Shown here one piece after another: positions 3,464 to 54,799 of a stretch of 64,000 bases of DNA (its first letter is position 1; the number at the start of each line of letters is the position of its first letter). A program made the translations under genes and the position numbers. Origin of the DNA: Escherichia coli (GTDB lineage Bacteria; Pseudomonadota; Gammaproteobacteria; Enterobacterales; Enterobacteriaceae); the NCBI RefSeq assembly GCF_045037415.1, contig NZ_CP173439.1; one strand, 5' to 3'. Below the pieces are notes generated by a model, which had not been told where the DNA came from, did no database searches, and worked only from the letters and a program-made list of their open reading frames with translations.

Positions 3464-3573
3464 AGGAGTACCTCCGTTCCATGATGTAAACGTGACACAG
3501 TTTATTGTTATTGATTATTATTATCATTATGTTATCACGCACCAGTACACGATGACAATAAAGGAGAAACCAG

Positions 3574-3921
3574 ATGAAAGCGGATATATCTGTAAAGTAT
3601 TTTCTGAAAAGCCTGATACCAGGTTTCATTATTCTTACAGTTTTTTATCTGGGATGGAAAGATAACCAGGAAAATTCAAGAATGTTTTATGCGTTCATCG
3701 GATGCATTATCAGCTCCATTACTTTTCCTTTTTCAATGAAGATAATACAGAAAATGGTAATAAGGTTTACAGGGAAAGAAGTCTGGCAAAAAGACTTCTT
3801 TACTAATCCAGTTGGCGGAAGCTTAACTGTAATATTTGAATTATTCTGTTTCGTTATATCAGTTCCTGTAGTTGCCATTTACTTAATATTTATATTCTGC
3901 AAAACCCTTTCAGGAAAATGA
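3574..3921 (+). CDS. small polytopic membrane protein, unknown function (first gene of the AT-rich island)
   Basis: 115-aa ORF with about three hydrophobic segments; AT-rich codon usage like the lasso genes downstream. Confidence 0.5.
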   Translation: MKADISVKYFLKSLIPGFIILTVFYLGWKDNQENSRMFYAFIGCIISSITFPFSMKIIQKMVIRFTGKEVWQKDFFTNPVGGSLTVIFELFCFVISVPVVAIYLIFIFCKTLSGK

Positions 3922-4456
3922 AAGGGCATCATTATATGTCAGATACCAATAAGTTTATTGTTCTGCTCAATAAACTTATCATTAACAAGCGCACTCACAG
4001 CAGCCATAATAATTGCAAAACCCAGAATACCTACAAGGGTCCCCGGCATGACGGAAAACGTCCATGCGGTAACAGATGAAGTAGCTCTTCCTGCTGCCAG
4101 TGATTCAAGTTTTACAAAAAATGGACGCCAGTTATCTGTCCAGACAACCTTACCAAACTCAGTGCTCCAGTCAGCAAAATCGTTGCCTTCAGTACACCGT
4201 GTTTTCTCTTCAGCTCTCTTCTGGTTGATGTCGGCAAGCTGGCAACAAAAATTCTCTTTTTACGTCAAGAACGTCATTTGCATGTTTTTACTCATTTGTT
4301 CTGGCACTGACGTTATTTCTCGCCGAATTTACCGCAGATTCAGCAAAGGTGATTTTATTGTAACTGCAACACCTACCAGATGACGGAAAACGGGTGAACG
4401 GATTAGAGTACGATTTTTCCATTTCGTGATCTTCACCTCAGAACCCCACCATTGAT

Positions 4457-4475
4457 GATAAAAATGATTATCATT
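4457..4475 (+). promoter_or_regulatory. Fur-box-like sequence next to the precursor promoter
   Basis: gataaaaatgattatcatt matches about 13 of 19 positions of the Fur consensus GATAATGATAATCATTATC; inner tgattatcatt is one mismatch from tgataatcatt. Confidence 0.3.
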
Positions 4476-4479
4476 CGCA

Positions 4480-4507
4480 TTGACACTTTGAAATAAGTAG
4501 TTATATT
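4480..4507 (+). promoter_or_regulatory. putative sigma-70 promoter of the lasso precursor gene
   Basis: TTGACA (4480..4485), 16-bp spacer, TATATT (4502..4507); about 70 bp upstream of the precursor ATG, which has an AAGGA Shine-Dalgarno. Confidence 0.35.
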
Positions 4508-4576
4508 TTTCATGGTTATTGAGCAATTGGTAACCAATGTAGGTTGTAGGTGTTTCATTTTCATTAAGGAATATGT

Positions 4577-4765
4577 ATGAAAAAACAATCTAAAGAAGTG
4601 AAAACCTCTGGCTCTGAACATCGTGAAATTATGATAGAAATTGATGCCTCTAAATCGACGAACGGTACCGGTGGAGGCTCCATCATTGAAGGGTCATACA
4701 CTGTCTATCGCTGCGATGGCGGAAGTGTCCCCTCGCGTCCTTTTGGCCCCCCATTCTGTCCTTAA
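4577..4765 (+). CDS. putative lasso-peptide precursor (A gene)
   Basis: 62-aa ORF MKKQSKEVKTSGSEHREIMIEIDASKSTNGTGGGSIIEGSYTVYRCDGGSVPSRPFGPPFCP; good SD; immediately upstream of the cyclase; Thr near the leader end, Gly-rich core start, Glu at a ring-forming distance, aromatic and Cys residues in the tail. Confidence 0.6.
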   Translation: MKKQSKEVKTSGSEHREIMIEIDASKSTNGTGGGSIIEGSYTVYRCDGGSVPSRPFGPPFCP

Positions 4766-4892
4766 ATTTAAAGGCTGGTCATGATTGAAATATTCACTTC
4801 TCTCAAACGAAAGCAATGAATCCGATAATACAGGTATATTCGATAAAAAGGACGTCTTTTGTGGCGTCCTTACCTTAAGGAGATTATTACGA

Positions 4893-6281
4893 ATGTCTTT
4901 GGGGGATAAATTTACATCTGGATACCGTGGGATTAATGCCTTCAATAGTGGCGTGATAAAACTTCTTGTTGCCAGAGAAAATGACTGGATTGAAGAAAAA
5001 CTTAGTGCCATTTTAACTCAATCACCTCGTATTGATTTCGAACCACTCATTGCGAGTATAGTTTTTGGGCGTACTGAGGGGAAAACTTCATTATTTAAAA
5101 ATGTGGAATGTATTGTTCCTGGTTGCAGTTTTAAAATTGACCACACGCACAATGGTGCATCCGTAAGTGAATATATTGACTGGAATGCAATTTCATATAA
5201 GACATTACCGCACGACCCGGCAGAGATTCTTTTTCAGTCTGTATCTGAAGTCGTCAACAGAAATCAAGGCGGATACTTTGTTGTGCGCCTGTCTGGTGGC
5301 ATGGACTCTACTGGCATTCTTCTCTCACTAATGGAGGCAGTTGATGTAAGCAGAATTATTGCCATAACTTATCGGTACCTTATGGGGACAAGCAATCAAG
5401 ATGAAGTATCAGCAAGGTATTTATGTAAAATATTTGGAATCAGGCAAATAATAATTGATTTTGAACCTCATTCATTATTTCATAGGCTTCCTTCACCAGT
5501 GCCTCCTGTTCTAAATATGAGAACAATAAATTTTAAAGTTTATGAAGAGGAAAGAAAGCGTATCGGAAGTATCTGTGGAGATAATTATACCCTGTTTGAT
5601 GGGCATGGGGGGGACCATGTATTTTGTGAGAAAATCCCGTTTGGAATAATAAAAGAGTTATTTTTCCATGGGAGTTTGTTAACCTCATGCCGTAAGTTAT
5701 TACAGATAGCTCGCCTTCATGGCATAAATATGAAAGATGTCTTATTAATGCATACTAATAGTATGCATTATCTTATAACTGAAGCACAGTGTTATTTTTC
5801 CAAAGATGTTATAAAAAACCTTCACTATGACAGAAAAACAGTAAGTGAAGAAAGAAAGTCAGCCCTTCAGGAGGCTATTCTTGATAATGGGACGAGCCTG
5901 ACGCTGAGTCTTACGGAAAACGATATATTCCCTTTTACAGACCAGAGGATGATAGGCTATGGTCTGAAACTCAGAGTTGAGGAGTCATTTGATACTACAT
6001 CAAAACGATTTCAATACAGAAAAGCGATTAATGACAGATATAAATTTGTATTTACCAGAAAAGATAAGGGGCATATAACAGGTGCATATCAGTCGGCCCT
6101 TAGTGTTAATAAGGACCGTGTTATTAATCTTCTGCGCCATGGGCAGTTCGCGACACACGGTTTGTTAAACTTGGAGGGGGTAGAGCGAGCAATAGAAACA
6201 AGTTCTCATGGCATCGGTGGAGTCAGTTTTATTCTTATGAAATTAATTGCTGCAGAACTTATCTTTGAAGGATATTTATAA
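4893..6281 (+). CDS. lasso-peptide cyclase (asparagine synthetase B-like, C protein)
   Basis: ORF 4785..6281 with the likely start at ATG 4893 (AAGGAG SD); PP-loop ATP pyrophosphatase motif VVRLSGGMDSTGIL; size like McjC; stop overlaps the next start (TAATG). Confidence 0.75.
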   Translation: MSLGDKFTSGYRGINAFNSGVIKLLVARENDWIEEKLSAILTQSPRIDFEPLIASIVFGRTEGKTSLFKNVECIVPGCSFKIDHTHNGASVSEYIDWNAISYKTLPHDPAEILFQSVSEVVNRNQGGYFVVRLSGGMDSTGILLSLMEAVDVSRIIAITYRYLMGTSNQDEVSARYLCKIFGIRQIIIDFEPHSLFHRLPSPVPPVLNMRTINFKVYEEERKRIGSICGDNYTLFDGHGGDHVFCEKIPFGIIKELFFHGSLLTSCRKLLQIARLHGINMKDVLLMHTNSMHYLITEAQCYFSKDVIKNLHYDRKTVSEERKSALQEAILDNGTSLTLSLTENDIFPFTDQRMIGYGLKLRVEESFDTTSKRFQYRKAINDRYKFVFTRKDKGHITGAYQSALSVNKDRVINLLRHGQFATHGLLNLEGVERAIETSSHGIGGVSFILMKLIAAELIFEGYL

Positions 6282-6964
6282 TGACTTCATTCTACTTTAA
6301 GCCGAATATACATCATGTCAATATTAATAATGAAATAACTATCCTTGATGAGATATCTGATCGTTATATCCTTCTTTCAGAAAAGCAATCAATTCTCTTA
6401 AAAGAGTATATGAGTGATGGTTCTCATAATTATGTCGGTGATACAATGAACCTGGAAGGTATAATTTCTAAGGAGTCGGGTACTCCTTTGGCAAAGAGTA
6501 CTCCGTCTCCTCAGGGGGTTGGTATATTGACCTGGAACAGTTATGTCAGCACTCGGTTGGGTATTGCCAGTTTTTTTTATATCTCTGAAGCAATAATGAG
6601 AATGATTCTTGTCCGAAAACGTCTCCAGTCAAAGGGTTTTCACCATTGCCTTGAGCATTGTCGTTGTGCGCTTAGCCAGAAGAGTTTTCCGTACATTTCC
6701 CTGAAAGATAAATTAATTATTGGGCAGAAGTTGAGCCAGAGTATTAAAATTGCGGCACCGTTTATCCCGGGCAAGGTTAAATGCCTTGAGTTTTCACTTG
6801 TTTTGTTCGACATGTTAGTGTCAAGAAAAATCAGTCCCACATTATTTATTGGATTCCAGCGCTATGATTTTCTTTCTCATGCATGGCTGGAAATTGATAA
6901 TGAAGTGGTTGCAGACCAAGATAACCTGAAAACAAAACTTACACCAATAATTAGAGTGGGATAA
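6281..6964 (+). CDS. lasso-peptide leader peptidase (transglutaminase-like Cys protease, B protein)
   Basis: 227 aa; candidate Cys...His...Asp triad (KVKCLEF ... LSHAWLEIDNE) with spacing like McjB; translationally coupled on both sides. Confidence 0.7.
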   Translation: MTSFYFKPNIHHVNINNEITILDEISDRYILLSEKQSILLKEYMSDGSHNYVGDTMNLEGIISKESGTPLAKSTPSPQGVGILTWNSYVSTRLGIASFFYISEAIMRMILVRKRLQSKGFHHCLEHCRCALSQKSFPYISLKDKLIIGQKLSQSIKIAAPFIPGKVKCLEFSLVLFDMLVSRKISPTLFIGFQRYDFLSHAWLEIDNEVVADQDNLKTKLTPIIRVG

Positions 6965-9034: not shown

Positions 9035-9125
9035 GCGCGGAACCCCTCTTTCCACTGGTGGCGCAGGAAAGTTAACCGGCTGCCACCATGGGATGATGTG
9101 TAAACCGTGCAGGCATGTTTTTACG
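9035..9125. repeat. Inverted-repeat copy B (partner of 3075..3165)
   Basis: Contains an inverted duplicate of the 3' end of the 3116..3463 gene (reads ...SFHWWRRKVNRLPPWDDV*) plus its downstream sequence. Confidence 0.6.
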
Positions 9126-9137
9126 GGATGATGCTTT

Positions 9138-9169
9138 CATTTGGATATAGAGAATTATTGTACGTTCAG
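9138..9169. repeat. partial copy of a 38-bp Tn3-family-like terminal repeat (tttggatatagagaattattgtac...)
   Basis: Shares the core tttggatat.ga.aattattgtac with copies at 32001, 42145 and 56465. Confidence 0.4.
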
Positions 9170-9465
9170 CACAACAAACTTAATACTAATGTATGCATAC
9201 ATTAGCATTAACTACACATTTAAGACATTAACCATTAATAATGTGTATTATTACACAATATTACCCATCAGGAAGCACGTCGTCAGTATTAGAAAAAAAT
9301 TACAAACGCTCGCCGCAGGCCCAGCGACCGAACGTTAGTGAGCGAGGAAGCGGAAGAGTGTCAGGTCTGAATTGAGCACATACGCCAGAAATTATATAGT
9401 AAAAAGATATATGATTTTTACATTGCTCAGTAGATTGTAAAATGCTGCTGATTGGATATCTATAT

Positions 9466-9852
9466 CTAATTTAGAATAATGGCTTTAAGATGGTCAGAAA
9501 CCATCTTCCAGTTATATTCTCCTGTTGCAGCATTCAAAGCGATAATTTGCATTTCATCAAACGAAATACGTGAACTAATAATATGTACACCATTCCGTTT
9601 TAAAAAAACCTGTGCAACAAACAAGGCTGTTCGCTTATTTGCATCGTTGAAAATGTGACCACGAGCAATAGCAACTAAATACACGGCAGCCAGATCCATA
9701 ATATCTGTCACACCTTCATAATGATACATGTTCAAAACACGATGAATGATCGCGTCAGCGCGACCGGGTTCTGGCATACCCGCCACGCCACCATCACGCG
9801 AAATCAAGCGGTCATGAAACTCAATCACTTCCTGTGAACTAACGAATTTCAT
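9466..9852 (-). CDS. doc: Doc toxin (Fic/Doc family)
   Basis: 128 aa with the Doc motif HIFNDANKRTA; overall similar to P1 Doc as recalled; overlaps the phd stop. Confidence 0.8.
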   Translation of the reverse strand: MKFVSSQEVIEFHDRLISRDGGVAGMPEPGRADAIIHRVLNMYHYEGVTDIMDLAAVYLVAIARGHIFNDANKRTALFVAQVFLKRNGVHIISSRISFDEMQIIALNAATGEYNWKMVSDHLKAIILN

Positions 9853-10073
9853 CGCTTAGAAAGCTCCGTATAGGCCGTCCCATGACTTTGCATGATCTCA
9901 GCAAACTCAGCATCAAGAGCCGCTTTACGGTATCGTTCAAAAGCGTCTTTATCAACTAGTACAGCCGCGCCACCTTTACGGCGCTGAATCTCAACAGGCT
10001 GATTTTCATCAACCGCCAGCTCGAGCAACGAGGCCAGGTTATCGCGAGCATGGCTATAGTTACATGTAAACAT
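9849..10073 (-). CDS. phd: Phd antitoxin (Phd/YefM family)
   Basis: From internal Met: MFTCNYSHARDNLASLLELAVDENQPVEIQRRKGGAAVLVDKDAFERYRKAALDAEFAEI..., close to P1 Phd. Confidence 0.75.
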   Translation of the reverse strand: MFTCNYSHARDNLASLLELAVDENQPVEIQRRKGGAAVLVDKDAFERYRKAALDAEFAEIMQSHGTAYTELSKR

Positions 10074-10090
10074 AGTGCTTCCTCTTTGAG

Positions 10091-10111
10091 TTGTACAATT
10101 AAATTGTACAA
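10091..10111. promoter_or_regulatory. putative phd-doc operator: two TTGTACAA palindromes
   Basis: ttgtacaattaaattgtacaa about 20 bp upstream of the phd start; each 8-mer is self-complementary. Confidence 0.35.
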
Positions 10112-10260
10112 CAGTTCTGTTCAATATGAAATCACCGTAGTAAGGGGGGCGTGCCCATTTCCTCTAAAAGTCTCACCTTTATTATGTAATTAATTGAGTT
10201 TATTTAGAAAATGTTGCAATTTTAGCATCATTTTTTATTGTTCTTTTTAACCTGAAGTAG

Positions 10261-10297
10261 GGGGCCGCTTGGAATTCGGAAATTTTCCCACGCTAAG
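10261..10297. repeat. Tn21/Tn1721-subgroup-like 38-bp terminal IR remnant abutting IS21 copy 1
   Basis: GGGGCCGCTTGGAATTCGGAAATTTTCCCACGCTAAG resembles the Tn1721 IR as recalled (GGGG...AATTCGGAAA...ACGCTAAG). Confidence 0.4.
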
Positions 10298-10357
10298 TGT
10301 CAACGCCACGATGTTTGACCGTTATTTGCCATTTTCATGCCCGCTAAGATACTTTCG

Positions 10358-21790: not shown

Positions 21791-22960
21791 ATGAATCAGA
21801 AGTGGAAGACGCTAATAGTTTCAGTATTAACACCATCAAGTATTATATCAGGGATTGCGTTGATAGTTCTCTGGGGATATTTCAGTCGTCTGGATCGACT
21901 TGATATTTTCTTTGATGTGATGAATATTAAAAGCATCTTGGTATTGGTTTGTTGTACAACTATTCTATCATTGATTATGATCATTTTTATTTTTTTTATA
22001 ACATCTTTTTTTATACCAATAGTTATTCCTTATGATATAAAAAATCTTCCTGCTTACAATAAGATTCAGGGTAATTTTTTATCTGTAATGATGTTATCTG
22101 GCCTCTTCCCCATGGCCTTTATATACGTGTTATACTGTGCATTTGATTTTGACCAGAGTGTTAAAGATAACTCTGGCTGGTTATCTATTTTAAGTATAGG
22201 AGTACTAATAGTTGTTATTTCAGCCATAATAAACACGAGGTATCTTGAATATGACTTATCGTTTAAAAATAATAGAATGAAACTGTTGAGACGTGTTCAG
22301 ATCTATCTTGTCATTCCGTTGTCTATTGCTTTACTGGTGCATCTTCAGGTAATTCCACTGGAGATGGTTTTTAGGAATATTGAAACTTCAGATAAGAGTA
22401 TTAATTTCAAAGTGATAGCTGAACTGGCTTTCATGTCATATTTTATTTTTATTCTGACAATACTTCCCGGCCTCATTTATCTAAAAATGAATCCACAGCA
22501 TAAACTTTCTAAAAGAATTAGTTCTGCATTTGTCGCATCCTTGATGATATTATTAGTTATATCGACTCAAATAACCGTATTACCAGTAATTTTTACCCAT
22601 TCAGTTATTAAGCTCTCAGGTATAAGTGACTTCAAAATACATAGCTACATTATTAAAACAAGTGAATATCCGGAGGAGTTTTTTTCCAATGCAGTATGGG
22701 GTAAAAAAAATATAAAACCGGGGGAATATTACTCTGTGCAGGCTGTTTCTATGTTTACGACAAACCAGTTTATTCTCCTTTGTCCCAAGGATATTATAAG
22801 GTTTTATCGGGAAAGCTGGAAGTTCGACCTGCTTAATGTAGACTTCGATACAAATACCAGGAAGAAACTCCAGGAAGAAGCAGCATATTGCGTACCAATT
22901 TCTGCAATATCTGTAAAACGATGGGATATGCCTCTTCAGGGCTCGAAACCCTCAAATTAG
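21791..22960 (+). CDS. hypothetical polytopic membrane protein (AT-rich orphan)
   Basis: 389 aa with about eight hydrophobic helices and a ~90-aa hydrophilic C-terminal domain; flanked by long AT-rich non-coding DNA. Confidence 0.5.
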   Translation: MNQKWKTLIVSVLTPSSIISGIALIVLWGYFSRLDRLDIFFDVMNIKSILVLVCCTTILSLIMIIFIFFITSFFIPIVIPYDIKNLPAYNKIQGNFLSVMMLSGLFPMAFIYVLYCAFDFDQSVKDNSGWLSILSIGVLIVVISAIINTRYLEYDLSFKNNRMKLLRRVQIYLVIPLSIALLVHLQVIPLEMVFRNIETSDKSINFKVIAELAFMSYFIFILTILPGLIYLKMNPQHKLSKRISSAFVASLMILLVISTQITVLPVIFTHSVIKLSGISDFKIHSYIIKTSEYPEEFFSNAVWGKKNIKPGEYYSVQAVSMFTTNQFILLCPKDIIRFYRESWKFDLLNVDFDTNTRKKLQEEAAYCVPISAISVKRWDMPLQGSKPSN

Positions 22961-23290: not shown

Positions 23291-23840
23291 TTATTTCCGA
23301 ACCTCGCCCTTGCCTGCGTAACCATCCGTCGCCCCCATCCTGTTTTCAGACTGCGGAAAAAGGCAAGTTTTTATCCCCCCACAGAGATTCAATCATATAT
23401 CGCGTGTTTTGGAAGTGACAGTTCTTATTCCTGAGAATACTGCATGTGCAACACACTCGGCATCCATCGATACCACTTTTATCTCCAATAGGCAGGATAA
23501 AAAACAAGACTGTGAATTAAAGTAATCGGCAAATGAATGAGTTAGAAGATACTGAAAATGAATCAAGGACTAACCCCATAGGGAATGAAAATAATAAAAG
23601 AACATCTTGTTTTTATTTTAATGAATGAGCATGTTCTTTTATATTAATAACAAAACCTATCATTAAACAAAATGATGAATGACAGAGTTTTCTTTAAAAT
23701 AGCTTATATTATCTTACAGTAGCTGACATAGTGCAATATAAATTATCAGCTATGCCATAACGGCTTAGCAGTGTCTAAGCGTAAGAATCAAGACTTCAGT
23801 TACAGTTTACTCACGGTAGAAATATTTAATGGATTTGCCC

Positions 23841-24746
23841 CTATATTTCCAGACACCTGTTATCACTTAACCCATCACTGGCCCACTGCCGCAGATATTC
23901 CCGTGGCGAGCGATAACCCAGCGCACTATGCGGATGCCATTCGTTATAATGCTCGAACGCCTCTGCAAGGTTCTTTGCTGCCGTTAACCCGTCTGGTTTG
24001 GGCATGATACTGATGTAGTCACGCTTTATCGTTTTCACGAAGCTCTCTGCTATTCCGTTACTCTCCGGACTCCGCACTGCCGTGTTCTTCGGTTCAAGTC
24101 CCAACATCCTGGCGAACTGACGTGTTTCATTCGCCCGGTAGCATGAACCATTATCCGTCAGCCACTCCACTGGAGACGCCGGAAGCTCGCTGCCAAAGCG
24201 GCGTTCCACTGCTCCCAGCATGACGTCCTGTACTGTTTCACTGTCGAAGCCACCCGTTGTGACCGCCCAGTGCAGTGCCTCACGGTCACAGCAGTCCAGC
24301 GCGAACGTGACCCGCAGTTTTTCTCCGTTATCACAGCGGAACTCAAACCCGTCAGAGCACCATCGCTGATTACTTTCTTTCACAGCCACTCTGCCGGTAT
24401 GTGCCCGTTTCGATGGCGGTACAGCGGGTTTTCGCTCAAGCAACAGCGCATTCTGGCGCATGATCCGGTAAACACGTTTGGCATTGATCGCAGGCATACC
24501 ATCAAGTTCTGTTTGTCTGCGAAGCAGCGCCCATACCCGACGATAACCATATGTGGGTAGCTCTCCGATAACATGGTGTATACGGCGAAGCACATCCGTA
24601 TCATCCGTGTGACGGCTGCGGCGGCCGTCCTTCCAGTCATCGGCTCGTCTGAGAATGACGTGCAACTGCGCACGCGACACCCGGAGACAACGGCTGACGA
24701 AGCTTACTCCCCATCCCCGGGCAATAAGGGCGCGTGCGCTATCCAC
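23841..24746 (-). CDS. insD: IS2 InsD (OrfB, DDE transposase)
   Basis: 301 aa matching IS2 InsD ([30 protein letters not shown]...). Confidence 0.9.
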
Positions 24747-25069
24747 TTTTTTGCTCGCCCATATTCAACGGCTTCTTTAAGGAGTTCATTTTCCATCGTT
24801 TTTTTGCCGAGCAGACGCTGGAGTTCTTTAATCTGCTTCATGGCGGCAGCAAGTTCAGAGGCAGGAACGACCTGTTCTCCGGCAGCCACAGCAGTAAGAC
24901 TTCCCTCCTGGTATTGCTTACGCCAGAGAAATAGCTGGCTGGCTGCCACACCATGTTGCCGGGCAACAAGGGAGACCGTCATTCCCGGTTCAAAGCTCTG
25001 CTGAACGATAGCGATCTTTTCCTGTGTAGTACGCCGTCTGCGTTTCTCCGGCCCTAAGACATCAATCAT
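24704..25069 (-). CDS. insC: IS2 InsC (OrfA)
   Basis: [41 protein letters not shown]... from the internal Met of ORF 24704..25114. Confidence 0.9.
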
Positions 25070-25350
25070 CTGTTCTCCAATGACTAGTCTAAAAACTAGT
25101 ATTAAGACTATCACTTAAATAAGTGATATTGGTTGTCTGGAGATTCAGGGGGCCAGTCTAAATTCCGTATTGCTGGTTCTTTATCGGTAGAAAAATCAAT
25201 ATCCATAGCATCGGTCGCAGGCGCTGATACATTGCAGAGCGACCGGGTATTAGAGTCGCTATTCACTGGTTATCACTGAACGCTGCGTGATCAGGGTTGC
25301 ATTAATAAAATGATATGTTATAACATACCAATATTAACATATATTTTCGC

Positions 25351-27321
25351 ATGTATATGAACGTAATCAGAAACGTCATTTGTACATTAATCATACTCCC
25401 GATAGGGTTACAGGCAGAGACCAGTCATTCTTCTATGGCTAAAGATACAATCACCGTTGTCGCGACAGGAAATCAGAACACGGTATTTGAAACGCCGTCA
25501 ATGGTCAGTGTCGTCACGAATGACACGCCATGGAGTCAGAATGCGGTCACATCAGCCGGCATGCTGAAAGGTGTTGCCGGTCTCAGCCAGACTGGTGCAG
25601 GACGGACCAATGGGCAGACCTTTAATCTACGCGGCTATGACAAAAGCGGGGTACTTGTTCTTGTTGACGGCATCCGTCAACTCAGTGACATGGCAAAAAG
25701 CAGTGGCACTTATCTGGATCCGGCACTCGTCAAACGTATCGAAGTTGTCCGCGGACCAAACTCCAGTCTGTACGGCAGTGGCGGGCTGGGAGGTGTTGTG
25801 GACTTCAGAACTGCCGATGCAGCAGATTTCCTTCCCCCCGGAGAGACAAACGGTTTAAGTCTGTGGGGAAATATCGCCAGTGGTGACCACAGCACAGGCT
25901 CGGGGCTCACCTGGTTCGGTAAAACCGGAAAAACAGATGCGCTCCTTTCTGTCATTATGCGTAAAAGAGGTAATATCTATCAAAGTGATGGTGAGCGCGC
26001 ACCTAACAAGGAAAAACCTGCAGCCCTGTTTGCGAAAGGCTCTGTCGGTATAACAGACAGTAACAAAGCAGGTGCCAGCTTGCGTCTCTACCGGAATAAC
26101 ACCACTGAACCGGGCAATCCCACTCAGACACATGGTGACAGCGGCCTGCGTGACAGAAAAACAGTACAAAATGACGTACAGTTCTGGTACCAGTACGCTC
26201 CTGTGGATAACAGCCTCATCAATGTAAAGTCAACTTTATATCTCAGTGATATCACTATCAAGACAAACGGTCACAACAAAACGGCAGAATGGAGAAACAA
26301 CAGAACCTCCGGTGTTAATGTTGTCAACAGGAGTCATACTCTGATTTTTCCGGGAGCCCATCAGTTAAGTTATGGCGCTGAATATTACCGTCAGCAGCAG
26401 AAGCCAGAAGGCTCTGCCACACTATATCCGGAAGGAAACATTGACTTTACATCGTTGTATTTCCAGGATGAAATGACAATGAAAAGCTACCCGGTTAACA
26501 TTATCGTCGGTTCCCGCTATGACCGGTACAAGAGCTTCAATCCCCGTGCCGGAGAACTGAAAGCCGAACGCCTGTCCCCAAGGGCGGCGATTTCAGTCTC
26601 ACCGACAGACTGGCTGATGATGTACGGCTCCATATCCTCTGCATTCCGTGCCCCCACAATGGCAGAAATGTACAGGGATGATGTACATTTTTACCGCAAG
26701 GGTAAACCCAATTACTGGGTACCTAACCTTAATCTGAAACCAGAAAATAACATTACCCGTGAGATTGGCGCAGGTATTCAACTGGACGGCCTGCTTACAG
26801 GCAATGATCGGCTGCAGTTGAAAGGCGGATATTTCGGAACGGATGCCAGAAACTATATTGCCACGCGCGTGGATATGAAACGGATGCGTTCTTATTCTTA
26901 TAATGTATCCCGGGCCCGTATCTGGGGATGGGATATGCAGGGAAATTACCAGTCTGATTATTTTGACTGGATGCTTTCTTATAACCGCACGGAAAGTATG
27001 GATGCCAGCAGCAGGGAATGGCTGGGCTCCGGCAATCCTGACACACTCATCAGTGACATCAGTATACCTGTTGGTCATGGAGGAGTTTCTGCCGGATGGC
27101 GTGCTGAACTTTCGGCAGCAGCCACGCATGTGAAAAAAGGCGATCCCCATCAGGCTGGCTATGCCGTACATTCCTTTTCACTGTCTTATAAGCCTGTAAG
27201 TGTTAAAGGCTTTGAGGCATCAGTGACTCTGGATAATGCCTTCAACAAGCTTGCCATGAATGGCAAAGGAGTGCCGCTTTCAGGCAGAACTGTCAGTCTT
27301 TATACCCGTTATCAGTGGTAA
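25351..27321 (+). CDS. TonB-dependent outer-membrane receptor, heme/hemoglobin (ChuA/ShuA-like) family
   Basis: 656 aa; signal peptide, plug-domain motifs, C-terminal ...RYQW; overall resemblance to ChuA. Confidence 0.8.
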   Translation: MYMNVIRNVICTLIILPIGLQAETSHSSMAKDTITVVATGNQNTVFETPSMVSVVTNDTPWSQNAVTSAGMLKGVAGLSQTGAGRTNGQTFNLRGYDKSGVLVLVDGIRQLSDMAKSSGTYLDPALVKRIEVVRGPNSSLYGSGGLGGVVDFRTADAADFLPPGETNGLSLWGNIASGDHSTGSGLTWFGKTGKTDALLSVIMRKRGNIYQSDGERAPNKEKPAALFAKGSVGITDSNKAGASLRLYRNNTTEPGNPTQTHGDSGLRDRKTVQNDVQFWYQYAPVDNSLINVKSTLYLSDITIKTNGHNKTAEWRNNRTSGVNVVNRSHTLIFPGAHQLSYGAEYYRQQQKPEGSATLYPEGNIDFTSLYFQDEMTMKSYPVNIIVGSRYDRYKSFNPRAGELKAERLSPRAAISVSPTDWLMMYGSISSAFRAPTMAEMYRDDVHFYRKGKPNYWVPNLNLKPENNITREIGAGIQLDGLLTGNDRLQLKGGYFGTDARNYIATRVDMKRMRSYSYNVSRARIWGWDMQGNYQSDYFDWMLSYNRTESMDASSREWLGSGNPDTLISDISIPVGHGGVSAGWRAELSAAATHVKKGDPHQAGYAVHSFSLSYKPVSVKGFEASVTLDNAFNKLAMNGKGVPLSGRTVSLYTRYQW

Positions 27322-27327
27322 CAAATC

Positions 27328-28119
27328 ATGATGAAAAATACAGGTTATATCTTAGCTCTTTGTCTGACAGCATCGGGGCATGTCCTGGCCCACGATGTCT
27401 GGATTACAGGTAAACAGGCAGAGAACAACATTACCGCAGAGATTGGTTATGGTCATAATTTCCCCTCAAAGGGCACAATTCCTGACAGAAGGAATTTCTT
27501 TGAAAATCCCCGGATTTATAACGGGAAAGAGACAATAACACTGAAGCCAGCGTCCACGGATTATGTCTATAAAACTGAGTCTGCAAGCAAAGATAATGGC
27601 TACGTTTTGTCAACATATATGAAACCGGGATACTGGTCGAGAACCTCTTCAGGATGGAAACCGGTCAGCCGGGAGGGCAGAAATGATGTGGCTTACTGTG
27701 AGTTTGTCACTAAATATGCGAAATCTTTTATTCCTGGTGAACAGCAGATGCCAGCACAACTCTATCAGTCTCCAACGGGGCATGAGCTTGAAATCATTCC
27801 GTTATCCGATATAAGTCGTTTCAGTGAAGATGTGAAGCTGAAAGTCCTGTATAAAACGTCCCCGCTCGCCGGAGCTATCATGGAGCTTGACTCGGTCAGT
27901 TATCTGAAATCATCCCGTCATACTCATGCAGTTGAGCACAAACATCCTGTTCATAAAGCAGAACTCACCTTTGTAACTAATGAGGATGGTATCGTCACAG
28001 TACCTTCTCTTCATATTGGACAGTGGCTGGCGAAAGTCCAAAATAAGAAAAGTTTTCAGGACAAAAGCCTGTGTGATGAAACTGTCGATGTGGCAACTTT
28101 AAGTTTCTCCCGAAATTAA
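27328..28119 (+). CDS. periplasmic protein co-encoded with the receptor (possibly DUF4198-like)
   Basis: 263 aa with signal peptide, start 6 bp after the receptor stop; family assignment from memory only. Confidence 0.45.
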   Translation: MMKNTGYILALCLTASGHVLAHDVWITGKQAENNITAEIGYGHNFPSKGTIPDRRNFFENPRIYNGKETITLKPASTDYVYKTESASKDNGYVLSTYMKPGYWSRTSSGWKPVSREGRNDVAYCEFVTKYAKSFIPGEQQMPAQLYQSPTGHELEIIPLSDISRFSEDVKLKVLYKTSPLAGAIMELDSVSYLKSSRHTHAVEHKHPVHKAELTFVTNEDGIVTVPSLHIGQWLAKVQNKKSFQDKSLCDETVDVATLSFSRN

Positions 28120-28142
28120 CAATACTATTCCCTGCCCTGAAA

Positions 28143-28847
28143 TTGTAAGCGTGCAGCAAGAACCGTATTGACGGGGATGTGTTATTCAGTCGGCAGTGCT
28201 ACGCGCCAGGGGAGCAGTTCGCCGACCCGGTTTATCGGCCAGTCGGCTATGACGTCAAGGACATAGCGGAGGTAGCTTTCTGGCTCCACTCCGTTCAGTT
28301 TGCACGTCCCGATCAGGCTGTACAGCAGCGCTCCCCGCTCTCCTCCATGATCCGAACCGAAGAACAGGTAGTTTTTGCGGCCCAGACTGACCATCCGCAA
28401 CGCATTTTCAGCGATGTTATTGTCCGCCTCAGCCCAGCCATCATCTGCATAGTACGTCAGCGCCGGCCACTGGTTCAGGGCGTATGCGAACGCTTTCGCC
28501 AGTTCTGAGTGTCGCGACAGGGTTTTCATCTTTTCACGCAGCCAGCTTTCCAGGGATTTCAGCAGCGGTTTCGTTTTCAACTGACGTTCGGCAAGGCGCT
28601 GCTCCGCCGTCATTCCCCTTATCTCTGCCTCGATGGCGTACAGTTCGCCGATCCGTTTCAGCGCTTCCTCCGTCAGGGTTGACGGGGTGCGAACGTGCAC
28701 ATCGTGGATTTTACGGCGGGCGTGAGCCCAACAGGCGGCTTCCGTTATCCGGTCATCCCGGTACAGCTCGTTGAACCCGGCGTATGCATCCGCCTGCAGT
28801 ACACCACTGAACCCCGCAAGATGGGTCTGCGGATGGATGCCTTTTCT
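28143..28847 (-). mobile_element. IS66-family element fragment, truncated by IS21-like copy 2
   Basis: Terminal GTAAGCGTGCAGCAAGAACCG characteristic of IS66-family IRs; adjacent ORF is the C-terminal part of an IS66-type transposase. Confidence 0.6.
28182..28847 (-). pseudogene. IS66-family transposase, 5'-truncated
   Basis: ...[56 protein letters not shown] is a conserved IS66 TnpC C-terminus; reading frame enters the IS21 end. Confidence 0.65.
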
Positions 28848-28908: not shown

Positions 28909-30878
<1,970 letters not shown>

Positions 30879-36138: not shown

Positions 36139-36377
36139 CGACCCAGGTAGCGCGCCGTATTCCCCCCGCCGGCCGTTTTCTTCGACATGTACATCAGGCG
36201 CGGAACTCATCGGGGCGCGGGAATGAAATCCCATTCAGACTCCGGATAGATTCAAGCAAGCCCACTTATCGTCAAAATCGGTGTTGCAAAAACGGGAGTG
36301 ACCATAGATCCGTTTTCCAAGCGGACCCCATAATATCGGCTGGTAAACATCACTCGCTAGTGCATTCTTTTTGTTGG

Positions 36378-36394
36378 TAATGATAATCATTTAC
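36378..36394 (+). promoter_or_regulatory. Fur box upstream of the ChaN-like/TonB/receptor cluster
   Basis: taATGATAATCATTtac contains a 13-bp perfect match to the Fur-box core AATGATAATCATT. Confidence 0.5.
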
Positions 36395-54513: not shown

Positions 54514-54528
54514 ACCGCCAAAGAATAC

Positions 54529-54547
54529 AAATGATAATTATTATCAT
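54529..54547 (-). promoter_or_regulatory. Fur box upstream of fetM
   Basis: AATGATAATTATTATCAT, one mismatch from the Fur core; lies 15-35 bp upstream of the annotated GTG start, so the true start or promoter geometry needs checking. Confidence 0.5.
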
Positions 54548-54799
54548 ATCTTTTTGTCGCGTTGTACATGACCTGGATCATAAAAATGTCAGCAGACGAC
54601 AAGTTATGTAAACTTATTTCATCAAATCGTGATGAACACACACATTATGCGTTGATAAAAGGGACGTTATCTCCCTGTTTTTCTCATGGAATTAACGGCA
54701 AGGCAGGCGCGGTAACAGAGGAATAAATCCCCCTGCCGACAGTGATATTATTCATTATCGGCAGGCAGAAATAAAACGCGTTATTGCGTACAGCAATAT

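Follow-up and report, generated by a model that had tools for sequence, protein, structure and literature searches.

Between two insertion sequences, the 64,000-nucleotide stretch of Escherichia coli DNA analysed here (the window) carries a gene for a TonB-dependent receptor followed by a gene for a periplasmic protein. This arrangement raises the question of what the pair takes up and which regulator controls it. The initial annotation had proposed a ChuA-like haem receptor with a periplasmic partner, in which the adjacent IS2 might have replaced the native promoter and Fur control and possibly supplied an outward promoter. We instead read the locus, with moderate confidence, as a Zur-repressed, TonB-dependent acquisition module for a metal, probably zinc, whose native promoter is intact. 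The features are listed in Table 1.

Table 1 Features of the receptor-DUF4198 locus and its edges in the window
Feature	Position	Strand	Size	Basis and details
Complete IS2	23830..25160	-	1331 bp	Terminal repeats, ORFs; IRR at 23830, IRL at 25160 (terminus ...ggccagtcta); orfA 24704-25114, orfB 23841-24746, both on the minus strand
Native 5' region, IS2 to receptor	25161..25350	+		Alignment with homologues
Putative sigma-70 promoter TTGCAT-16 nt-TATAAC	25297..25324	+		-35 at 25297-25302, -10 at 25319-25324
Zur-box-like palindrome AAAATGATATGTTATAACATACC	25307..25329	.		Overlaps the -10 hexamer
TonB-dependent receptor, ChuA/ShuA paralogue	25351..27321	+	656 aa	ORF list, Pfam
DUF4198 periplasmic protein	27328..28119	+	263 aa	ORF list, Pfam
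Native terminator hairpin, left arm and half of the loop, CCCTGCCCTG AAATT	28130..28144	+		Alignment with the CFT073 downstream region
Truncated IS66-family element	28145..28847 (right end approximate)	-		Terminal repeat GTAAGCG..., C-terminal transposase fragment; transposase ORF 28182-28700

The two genes are separated by 6 bp (TAA caaatc ATG), as had been described from the ORF list, and both reading frames are intact. Compared with four diverged homologues, dN/dS is 0.09-0.31 for both genes; by this measure, the receptor gene and the DUF4198 gene are under purifying selection. The two genes are also neighbours in all of the about a dozen homologous loci which we examined. Constant adjacency together with purifying selection indicates that the two-gene unit is real and not a chance pairing of ORFs.

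Upstream, the IRL end of IS2 lies 190 bp from the receptor ATG, and downstream the terminal repeat of an IS66-family element starts 25 bp past the stop codon of the partner gene, so that the flanking by IS2 and an IS66 fragment, including the distance of ~190 bp, was described correctly. At the corresponding position of pVR50B, an IS3-family transposase with programmed frameshift is annotated. The 300 bp on the receptor side of the element have 95-99% identity to IS2-annotated sequence in many plasmids, and the identical IS2-receptor junction is found in 687 plasmid records. As the IRL end faces the receptor, the IS2 genes are transcribed away from it. The outward -35 hexamer known for IS2 sits in IRR, not in IRL. 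Plus-strand promoter matches at the IS2 end reach 8/12 at most, which is at chance level, and none exceeds this score up to the receptor (promoter tool scan and relaxed scan). The IS2 end is ~158 bp away from the conserved -10 hexamer. By these sequence criteria, the IS2 end offers no promoter directed at the gene and has the wrong orientation for read-through. A homologous locus on a Klebsiella plasmid carries an IS2-like IRL remnant 139 bp upstream, in the same orientation as in the window.

The proximal part of the 5' region is shared with loci which lack IS2. Homology to chromosomal copies begins at 25240-25272 of the window (query 80-112), i.e., the proximal 80-110 bp including promoter and operator align, and in the IS2-free plasmid pOkiPb01696, the entire stretch between IS2 and the receptor runs on unbroken. 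The initial suggestions that IS2 had displaced the native promoter and provides a new one are thus not borne out; by sequence analysis, the native promoter is preserved and IS2 read-through is not predicted. TTGCAT and TATAAC, spaced by 16 nt, form the putative receptor promoter. Among the aligned homologues, the -35 hexamer is kept in 4/5 and the -10 hexamer in 5/5. Identical hexamers, at 17-nt spacing, are present upstream of K-12 zinT, where the Zur box likewise covers the -10 hexamer.

The palindrome over the -10 hexamer matches the Zur consensus at 17/22 positions, better than any other site of the 64-kb window, and shuffling of the 190-bp upstream region gives P ~3.5e-4 for such a score. 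It also fits the consensus RNNNYRNNRYNNYRNNNY. Under the same scoring, the K-12 operators of znuA/C, zinT, and ykgM reach 20/22, 18/22, and 16/22, respectively. The Zur site of hlyII in strain J96, with the core TGTTATGTTATAACATA, binds Zur in EMSA (PMC5916954), and the core of the palindrome is the same. The core GTTATGTTATAACATAAC of the K-12 ykgM (rpmE2) operator is shared with the window, too. Compared with the Zur-repressed K-12 promoters of zinT and ykgM, the window copy has one more mismatch in the left half-site, and the genes downstream are different. The left half-site of the window carries a T-to-A change. The top sites of homologous loci score 20/22 (pOkiPb01696), 19/22 (RM10410), and 18/22 (CFT073 and locus L010), while two homologues have weaker boxes (L003, 14/22; L007, 15/22). 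Upstream of orthologues with 39-50% identity and in unrelated flanks, the operator core is kept as well (TTGTTATGTTATAACATAACC in L019 and TGATATGTTATATCATC in L020). We consider the palindrome a candidate Zur operator overlapping the promoter.

Fur had been assumed as the original regulator. With the 19-bp consensus, the best Fur match upstream of the receptor is 11-12/19; in the whole window, ~200 other positions reach this level, i.e., it is chance. We rejected a Fur box, and Fur control does not seem to have been the native state: Fur matches of at most 12/19 stand against Zur matches of 17/22 here and 18-20/22 in homologues. To our knowledge, Fur and Zur are the only regulators of the Fur/Zur family in E. 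coli. Reading the upstream region by eye for the NikR operator pattern GTATGA-N16-TCATAC gave no match. Other parts of the window, around 3507, 4454, 36376, and 54527, have high Fur-like scores. Two of these sites were tentatively placed on pVR50B by assumed collinearity, where only plasmid-maintenance and IS genes were found.

Receptor: The protein combines a signal peptide and the TonB box DTITVVA with a plug and the signature of the 22-strand barrel family; its Pfam domains are Plug (PF07715) and TonB-dependent beta-barrel (PF00593). It aligns over its full length with the ChuA/ShuA structures (PDB 9DIR, 9DHE, 3FHH) at 42% identity (E ~1e-165), is similar to them in size, and scores 419.5 bits in TIGR01785 (TonB-hemin), for which the cut-off is 316.85. 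TonB box, FRAP motif, and the equivalent of His420 in loop 7 (H446) are shared with ChuA/ShuA. Of the two haem-coordinating histidines, however, only this one is present, as the position of plug His86 in ChuA is occupied by Lys. The same Lys was found in 8/8 DUF4198-linked receptors which we examined and is a feature of the subfamily. In ChuA, the H86A substitution significantly abrogated growth on haemoglobin (PMC12241658). Also unlike ChuA, the receptor gene lies outside any chu operon, and neither a haem oxygenase nor a haem ABC transporter is linked to it; in about a dozen loci, genes for haem processing or haem ABC transport are not linked to the pair. Of the features expected of the haem family, a Fur box is thus missing upstream of the window receptor, and linkage to haem genes was found at none of these loci. 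Instead, a Zur-type operator (not of the Fur type) and a DUF4198 companion gene set the receptor apart from ChuA/ShuA. The PGAP receptor name depends on a TIGR01786 score of 324.3 with a cut-off of 323.75, and UniProt labels the Nissle/CFT073 copy "Hemin receptor." Hence, "ChuA-like" holds for the sequence (42% identity, TIGR01785), whereas "haem" does not follow from it, given the exchange of His86 for Lys and a partner from a metal-binding family. We regard haem as a doubtful substrate.

ZnuD/TdfJ of Neisseria, a TonB-dependent zinc receptor, offers a comparison for the Zur-controlled zinc role predicted here. Stork and co-workers reportedly described ZnuD in 2010 as Zur-regulated and haem-receptor-like. 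ZnuD is not an orthologue of the window receptor, which scores 44.6 bits in the NCBIfam ZnuD model (NF038289; cut-off 950), in the plug region alone, and in which no obvious extracellular loop rich in His/Asp was seen.

DUF4198 partner: The partner is a member of Pfam DUF4198 (PF10670; 94.1 bits, cut-off 34) and a homologue of Zcp, the zinc capture protein of N. gonorrhoeae (PDB 9MHI-9MHO; E 3e-23). Judged from its signal peptide and this homology, it is periplasmic, as the initial annotation had stated. Cleavage at VLA|HDVW, read by eye and from the alignment, would make His22 the mature N-terminus, and this residue is invariant in 44 homologues. Further elements are a GYGH motif and, at approximately residues 195-212, a loop rich in His (RHTHAVEHKHPVH) that is peculiar to the subfamily of the partner. 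Its AF2 model (pLDDT 90) matches Zn-Zcp with TM 0.75/0.84 and Ni-bound IsDUF4198 of Ideonella sakaiensis (PDB 9GCB) with TM 0.66/0.79, both at probability 1.00. The partner and Zcp share family, fold, periplasmic location, and a Zur box upstream. Unlike Zcp, the partner has GYGH and the internal His-rich loop, and its gene immediately follows that of a TonB-dependent receptor; zcp is monocistronic in Neisseria, whereas the DUF4198 gene of the window is co-operonic with the receptor gene. The zinc triad of Zcp (cluster 1) is not found in the partner, where the ligands H29/H31/H142 correspond to Q/E and E (compared with the mutant chain 9MHK, H29A/H31A/H142A). As the Zcp ligands are not conserved, we infer the metal site from a different subfamily. 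IsDUF4198, which shares the fold at 18% identity, binds its metal through the N-terminal His left after cleavage, and a second His lies nearby. Its His18 putatively matches the GYGH His, and its context is nickel/NikR, as opposed to Zur in the window. DUF4198 proteins are periplasmic binders of Zn or Ni (PMC12663993, PMC12537917). IsDUF4198 prefers Ni, and its family has NikR and, often, TonB receptors as neighbours. The DUF4198 genes of Caulobacter, Alteromonas, and Avibacterium are responsive to iron limitation.

From these features, the following mechanism may be proposed. Under zinc sufficiency, Zn-Zur would bind the palindrome, which overlaps the -10 hexamer, and so repress the promoter, as at zinT/znuC; under zinc starvation, the receptor and DUF4198 genes would be co-transcribed. 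The barrel of ChuA lineage, with its plug Lys, would import zinc, or a complex of zinc or another divalent metal, with energy from TonB. The DUF4198 protein would capture the metal through its N-terminal His, the GYGH His, and the flexible His-rich loop and then either serve as a buffer or hand the metal over to importers of the inner membrane, e.g., ZnuABC. The two insertions, IS2 and the IS66-family element, are probably old bystanders which delimit the module in IncF RepFIB plasmids; the former spared promoter and operator, and the latter took the terminator only.

Other explanations have to be weighed against the Zur-module reading. The receptor could be a third genuine haem/haemoglobin receptor of E. 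coli; the DUF4198 protein would then have an accessory role in the periplasm, and the Zur-like palindrome would be incidental or a secondary input. Its full-length homology to ChuA/ShuA, the TIGR01785 score above cut-off, the conserved FRAP motif and loop-7 His, and the UniProt label would all fit this. We nevertheless consider it unlikely, because the conserved Lys replaces a histidine whose loss strongly impairs ChuA (PMC12241658), a Fur box was not found upstream of the window receptor nor linked haem genes at any locus examined, the ligand of the partner family is Zn or Ni rather than haem, and the PGAP name is marginal. Moreover, a paper from 2025 lists Hma and ChuA as the only known haem transporters of E. 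coli (PMC12241658). That native regulation has been lost and the genes are expressed from an outward or hybrid promoter provided by the IS2 end appears very improbable. The orientation of the element, the promoter matches of 8/12 at most, a distance from the IS end to the -10 hexamer which exceeds that of hybrid promoters, and the intact promoter and operator common to IS-free loci all argue against it, whereas the closeness of the IS2 end and the junction in 687 records could be cited in its favour and the Klebsiella remnant may point to selection for insertions of this kind.

The choice of metal is a separate matter. A module for another transition metal (nickel/cobalt or iron/manganese), with an operator that merely looks like a Zur box, would be in line with the Ni preference of IsDUF4198 and the NikR neighbours of the family, with the response of DUF4198 genes to iron limitation, and with one distant locus (L020), at which a ZnuA-family ABC transporter with two permeases and a Fur-like box (15/19) precedes the pair. 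Against this stand the missing NikR pattern, the restriction of the Fur/Zur family in E. coli to these two regulators, and the resemblance of the operator to known Zur, not Fur, sites; we rate such a module as quite unlikely. Several observations nonetheless weigh against the Zur-module reading: the receptor is nearer to ChuA/ShuA than to any proven zinc receptor and keeps the His420 equivalent and the FRAP motif, which are typical of haem receptors; an obvious His/Asp-rich loop and the Zcp ligands are missing; the operator has the T-to-A change and is weaker in L003 and L007; and DUF4198 links to Ni and to iron starvation elsewhere mean that the metal could be other than zinc.

In nutritional immunity, one of the main strategies of the host is to withhold zinc by means of S100 proteins such as calprotectin. 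The zinc supply of E. coli is usually described as ZnuABC, ZupT, and ZinT, with yersiniabactin in some strains, and we know of no dedicated outer-membrane zinc receptor in these descriptions. Should a metal-related function under Zur control hold true, the module would count as a fitness factor carried on plasmids and now mislabelled as a haem/transferrin receptor. It would also provide a natural test of substrate change on a haem receptor scaffold and the first DUF4198 protein open to study with its cognate receptor. Tentatively, one may go further and imagine the first dedicated TonB-dependent zinc-piracy system of E. coli, in which a receptor of ChuA descent, its plug haem ligand exchanged for Lys, and a DUF4198 zinc chaperone act under Zur control. 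The metal might be taken from a host protein that sequesters zinc, much as ChuA obtains haem from haemoglobin, and the genes would be spread by IncF plasmids and by islands of ExPEC strains such as CFT073, UTI89, and Nissle 1917; we hold this to be possible rather than probable.

The module occurs in 1133 of 5426 complete E. coli genomes (about a fifth). On IncF plasmids, some of which are recorded as O25b:H4-ST131, the module adjoins the RepFIB replicon, and chromosomal copies are found in CFT073, UTI89, and Nissle 1917. Distant relatives were collected by an exhaustive HMMER search, as a word-indexed search gave few. In CFT073, the pair is followed by c1267, a GTPase of the CobW/COG0523 family; as no Zur box was found ahead of c1267, the link to COG0523 is one of genomic context only. 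As context, c1267 and the ZnuA-family transporter of L020 speak for the Zur-module reading. In the literature, we found no paper on the receptor-DUF4198 module, its Zur binding, or zinc-dependent repression, and the plasmid papers on pEC958 and pEC302/04 do not mention it.

At the downstream edge, the right arm of the terminator hairpin (GGGCAGGG) is present in IS-free homologues and has been removed in the window by the IS66-family insertion. Beyond the IS66 fragment, an IS21/IS100-like istB-istA pair follows at 28909-30878.

The initial annotation described two adjoining ORFs with a 6-bp gap, IS2 about 190 bp upstream and an IS66 fragment on the other side, and the ORF list and terminal repeats confirm this layout with its coordinates; the gap reads TAA-caaatc-ATG, and IS2 ends exactly 190 bp before the receptor ATG. 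Both genes are under purifying selection (dN/dS 0.09–0.31). We propose with moderate confidence that the pair is a Zur-repressed metal-uptake module, most likely for zinc, with a receptor of the ChuA lineage and with its native promoter and operator still in use. The TonB-dependent receptor would carry the metal into the periplasm, where the DUF4198 protein would capture it. From the comparisons described here we infer that Zur binds, that expression responds to zinc, and what the substrate is.

Features of the module and its borders in the window
Feature	Position	Strand	Remarks
IS2, complete, 1331 bp	23830–25160		two ORFs on minus strand
Zur-box-like site AAAATGATATGTTATAACATACC	25307–25329		17/22; top match in the 64-kb window, both strands
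Receptor ORF, 656 aa	25351–27321	+	ORF list
DUF4198 ORF, 263 aa	27328–28119	+	ORF list
IS66-family terminal repeat (GTAAGCG...)	starts at 28145		25 bp past the second stop codon
Truncated IS66 transposase ORF, then IS21/IS100-type istB-istA	beyond the IS66-family repeat		

Zur sites were scored with a 23-bp gamma-proteobacterial consensus; checked against K-12 operators, it recovers znuA/C (20/22), zinT (18/22), and ykgM (16/22). When the 190-bp region was shuffled, only 0.035% of the shuffles reached a score of at least 17. The operator core is that of the J96 hlyII site, to which Zur binds in EMSA (PMC5916954). The Zur-like site is likewise the top match in every homologous locus scanned (~14 kb apiece), with scores of 20/22 in pOkiPb01696, 19/22 in RM10410, and 18/22 in both CFT073 and an E. 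coli variant of 76% identity. It is also kept, as TTGTTATGTTATAACATAACC and TGATATGTTATATCATC, in two orthologues whose proteins are only 39–50% identical and whose flanks are unrelated, and a ZnuA-family ABC transporter adjoins one of them. The box overlaps a putative promoter, TTGCAT-16-TATAAC, and the same two hexamers occur upstream of K-12 zinT at a spacing of 17 nt. As the window box has one extra mismatch in its left half and two homologues have weaker boxes (14–15/22), repression could be leakier in the window. Native Fur control, as suggested initially, is not supported because the best Fur box upstream of the receptor scores 12/19, which is chance level. Fur-consensus matches of 15–16/19 lie elsewhere in the window (~3507–3531, 4454–4478, 36376–36394, and 54527–54551); two of these, if placed on pVR50B by assumed collinearity, would fall in plasmid-maintenance and IS regions, and no iron-uptake genes were identified.

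It had further been suggested that IS2 may have replaced the native promoter and possibly supplies an outward one. Homology to IS-free chromosomal copies starts at 25240–25272, and the sequence of pOkiPb01696, a RepFIB plasmid without IS2, runs on uninterrupted through the insertion point. Promoter and operator thus lie wholly inside retained native sequence. The IS2 terminus before the receptor is the IRL (...ggccagtcta), and since it faces the receptor with the IS2 genes on the opposite strand, read-through from IS2 is ruled out. The known outward -35 of IS2 is located in IRR, not IRL. Between 25100 and the receptor gene, no plus-strand promoter-like match exceeds 8/12, and the IS2 end lies about 158 bp from the -10. 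Dependence of receptor expression on IS2 is highly improbable, and this ordinary hypothesis is unsupported. The identical IS2-to-receptor junction is present in 687 plasmid records, so the insertion is old and inherited in this plasmid lineage rather than recent.

The label “ChuA-like” is correct for the receptor, which carries Plug and TonB-dependent barrel domains (Pfam) and has ChuA (9DIR, 9DHE; 42% global identity) and ShuA (3FHH) as its nearest solved structures (E ~1e-165, full length). TIGR01785 (TonB-hemin) matches with 419 bits (cut-off 317). The PGAP name “hemoglobin/transferrin/lactoferrin family receptor” stems from TIGR01786 (324.3 bits, cut-off 323.75); this score barely clears the cut-off, so the name reflects a threshold and is no evidence of function. 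No proven zinc receptor is as close to this receptor as haem receptors are (the ZnuD model gives 44.6 bits, cut-off 950), and this closeness is the strongest argument against our proposal. We rate a true haem receptor as unlikely. The loop-7 haem ligand His420 of ChuA is kept as H446, but at the plug ligand His86 there is Lys, which forms part of a D-M-(A/D)-K-(S/G)-S motif that is conserved. Each of the six close variants shows this, and so do two orthologues of only 48–50% identity. In ChuA, H86A significantly abrogated the growth phenotype in a 2025 structural study, and only Hma and ChuA are known as E. coli haem transporters (PMC12241658).

The 263-aa partner matches DUF4198 (PF10670) with 94 bits (cut-off 34), and profile, structure, and alignment comparisons gave no signs of haem binding in it. 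The family was first characterised in two 2025 papers: N. gonorrhoeae Zcp, a periplasmic homodimer under Zur control, binds zinc (PMC12663993), and IsDUF4198, whose family frequently neighbours TonB receptors, binds Ni via its N-terminal His and His18 (PMC12537917). The partner resembles Zcp (E 3e-23), and superposition of its AlphaFold2 model (pLDDT 90) gives TM scores of 0.75/0.84 with Zn-Zcp and 0.66/0.79 with Ni-IsDUF4198. An exhaustive HMMER search supplied 44 homologues for an alignment, in which His22, the first residue after the signal peptide (VLA|HDVW), is invariant and GYGH frequently provides a second His. The His-rich loop RHTHAVEHKHPVH is an insert in the partner's subfamily and is flexible in the model. 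The partner lacks the trio of Zn ligands found in Zcp, so it belongs to DUF4198 without being a Zcp-type protein, and this lack also counts against our proposal; we regard a module for another metal as quite improbable. TonB-dependent zinc receptors under Zur control, metal-binding DUF4198 proteins, and adjacency of DUF4198 and TonB receptor genes are already known, and searches of the literature library found no paper on the module. If true, it would be a new and very widespread E. coli member uniting these kinds, and the shift from an iron/haem to a Zur/zinc assignment is unexpected and open to direct tests.

Copies that cover 80% or more of the receptor region are found in 1133 of 5426 complete E. 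coli genomes (816 plasmid and 419 chromosomal placements), and 709 PLSDB plasmids carry the unit. IncF plasmids, among them pVR50B, match the region at 100% identity in their RepFIB-proximal part; chromosomal copies in CFT073, UTI89, and Nissle 1917 are 96–97% identical. In CFT073, c1267 (9124–10323 of the extracted locus), a CobW/COG0523 G3E GTPase gene, follows directly 3′ of the pair, which we therefore take by position as c1265-c1266. Proteins of this family frequently serve as zinc metallochaperones; c1267 itself lacks a Zur box. The gene is missing from plasmid copies, where IS66 is inserted at that border. Alignment with IS-free homologues shows that the IS66-family insertion (28130–28145) interrupts the native terminator hairpin CCCTGCCCTG...GGGCAGGG at its loop and that only the left arm is left, so module transcripts may read into the IS66 fragment. 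In the best-supported reading, the flanking insertion sequences merely mark the borders of the module in IncF plasmids.

A low-GC (~31%) ORF for a 389-aa multi-pass membrane protein (21791–22960), “hypothetical” in every plasmid inspected, lies between the RepFIB replicon/integrase region and the IS cluster. IS2 lacks a matching 5-bp target-site duplication at 23825–23829 and 25161–25165 (tttaa on one side, aattc on the other), and the sequence to its left differs from the ancestral upstream in pOkiPb01696. Other IncF plasmids (pSCU-172-2) have a truncated IS2 and, further upstream, a gene for a PapB/FocB-family regulator; pVR50B, identical to the window here, has none annotated upstream of IS2, and this points to a deletion or recombination associated with IS2. 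In a variant E. coli locus (4009–6792 of that locus), the receptor is 96% identical to that of the window and the adjoining DUF4198 protein only 77%, which indicates recombination inside the two-gene unit. A ~70-bp IS2-like IRL remnant lies 139 bp upstream of the receptor homologue on K. pneumoniae plasmid CP153602.1 (~3808–3878 of that locus), oriented as IS2 at window 25100–25160 but with different flanking sequence. It looks like the trace of a separate insertion by an IS2-family element ahead of a gene of the same family, which could reflect target preference or selection.
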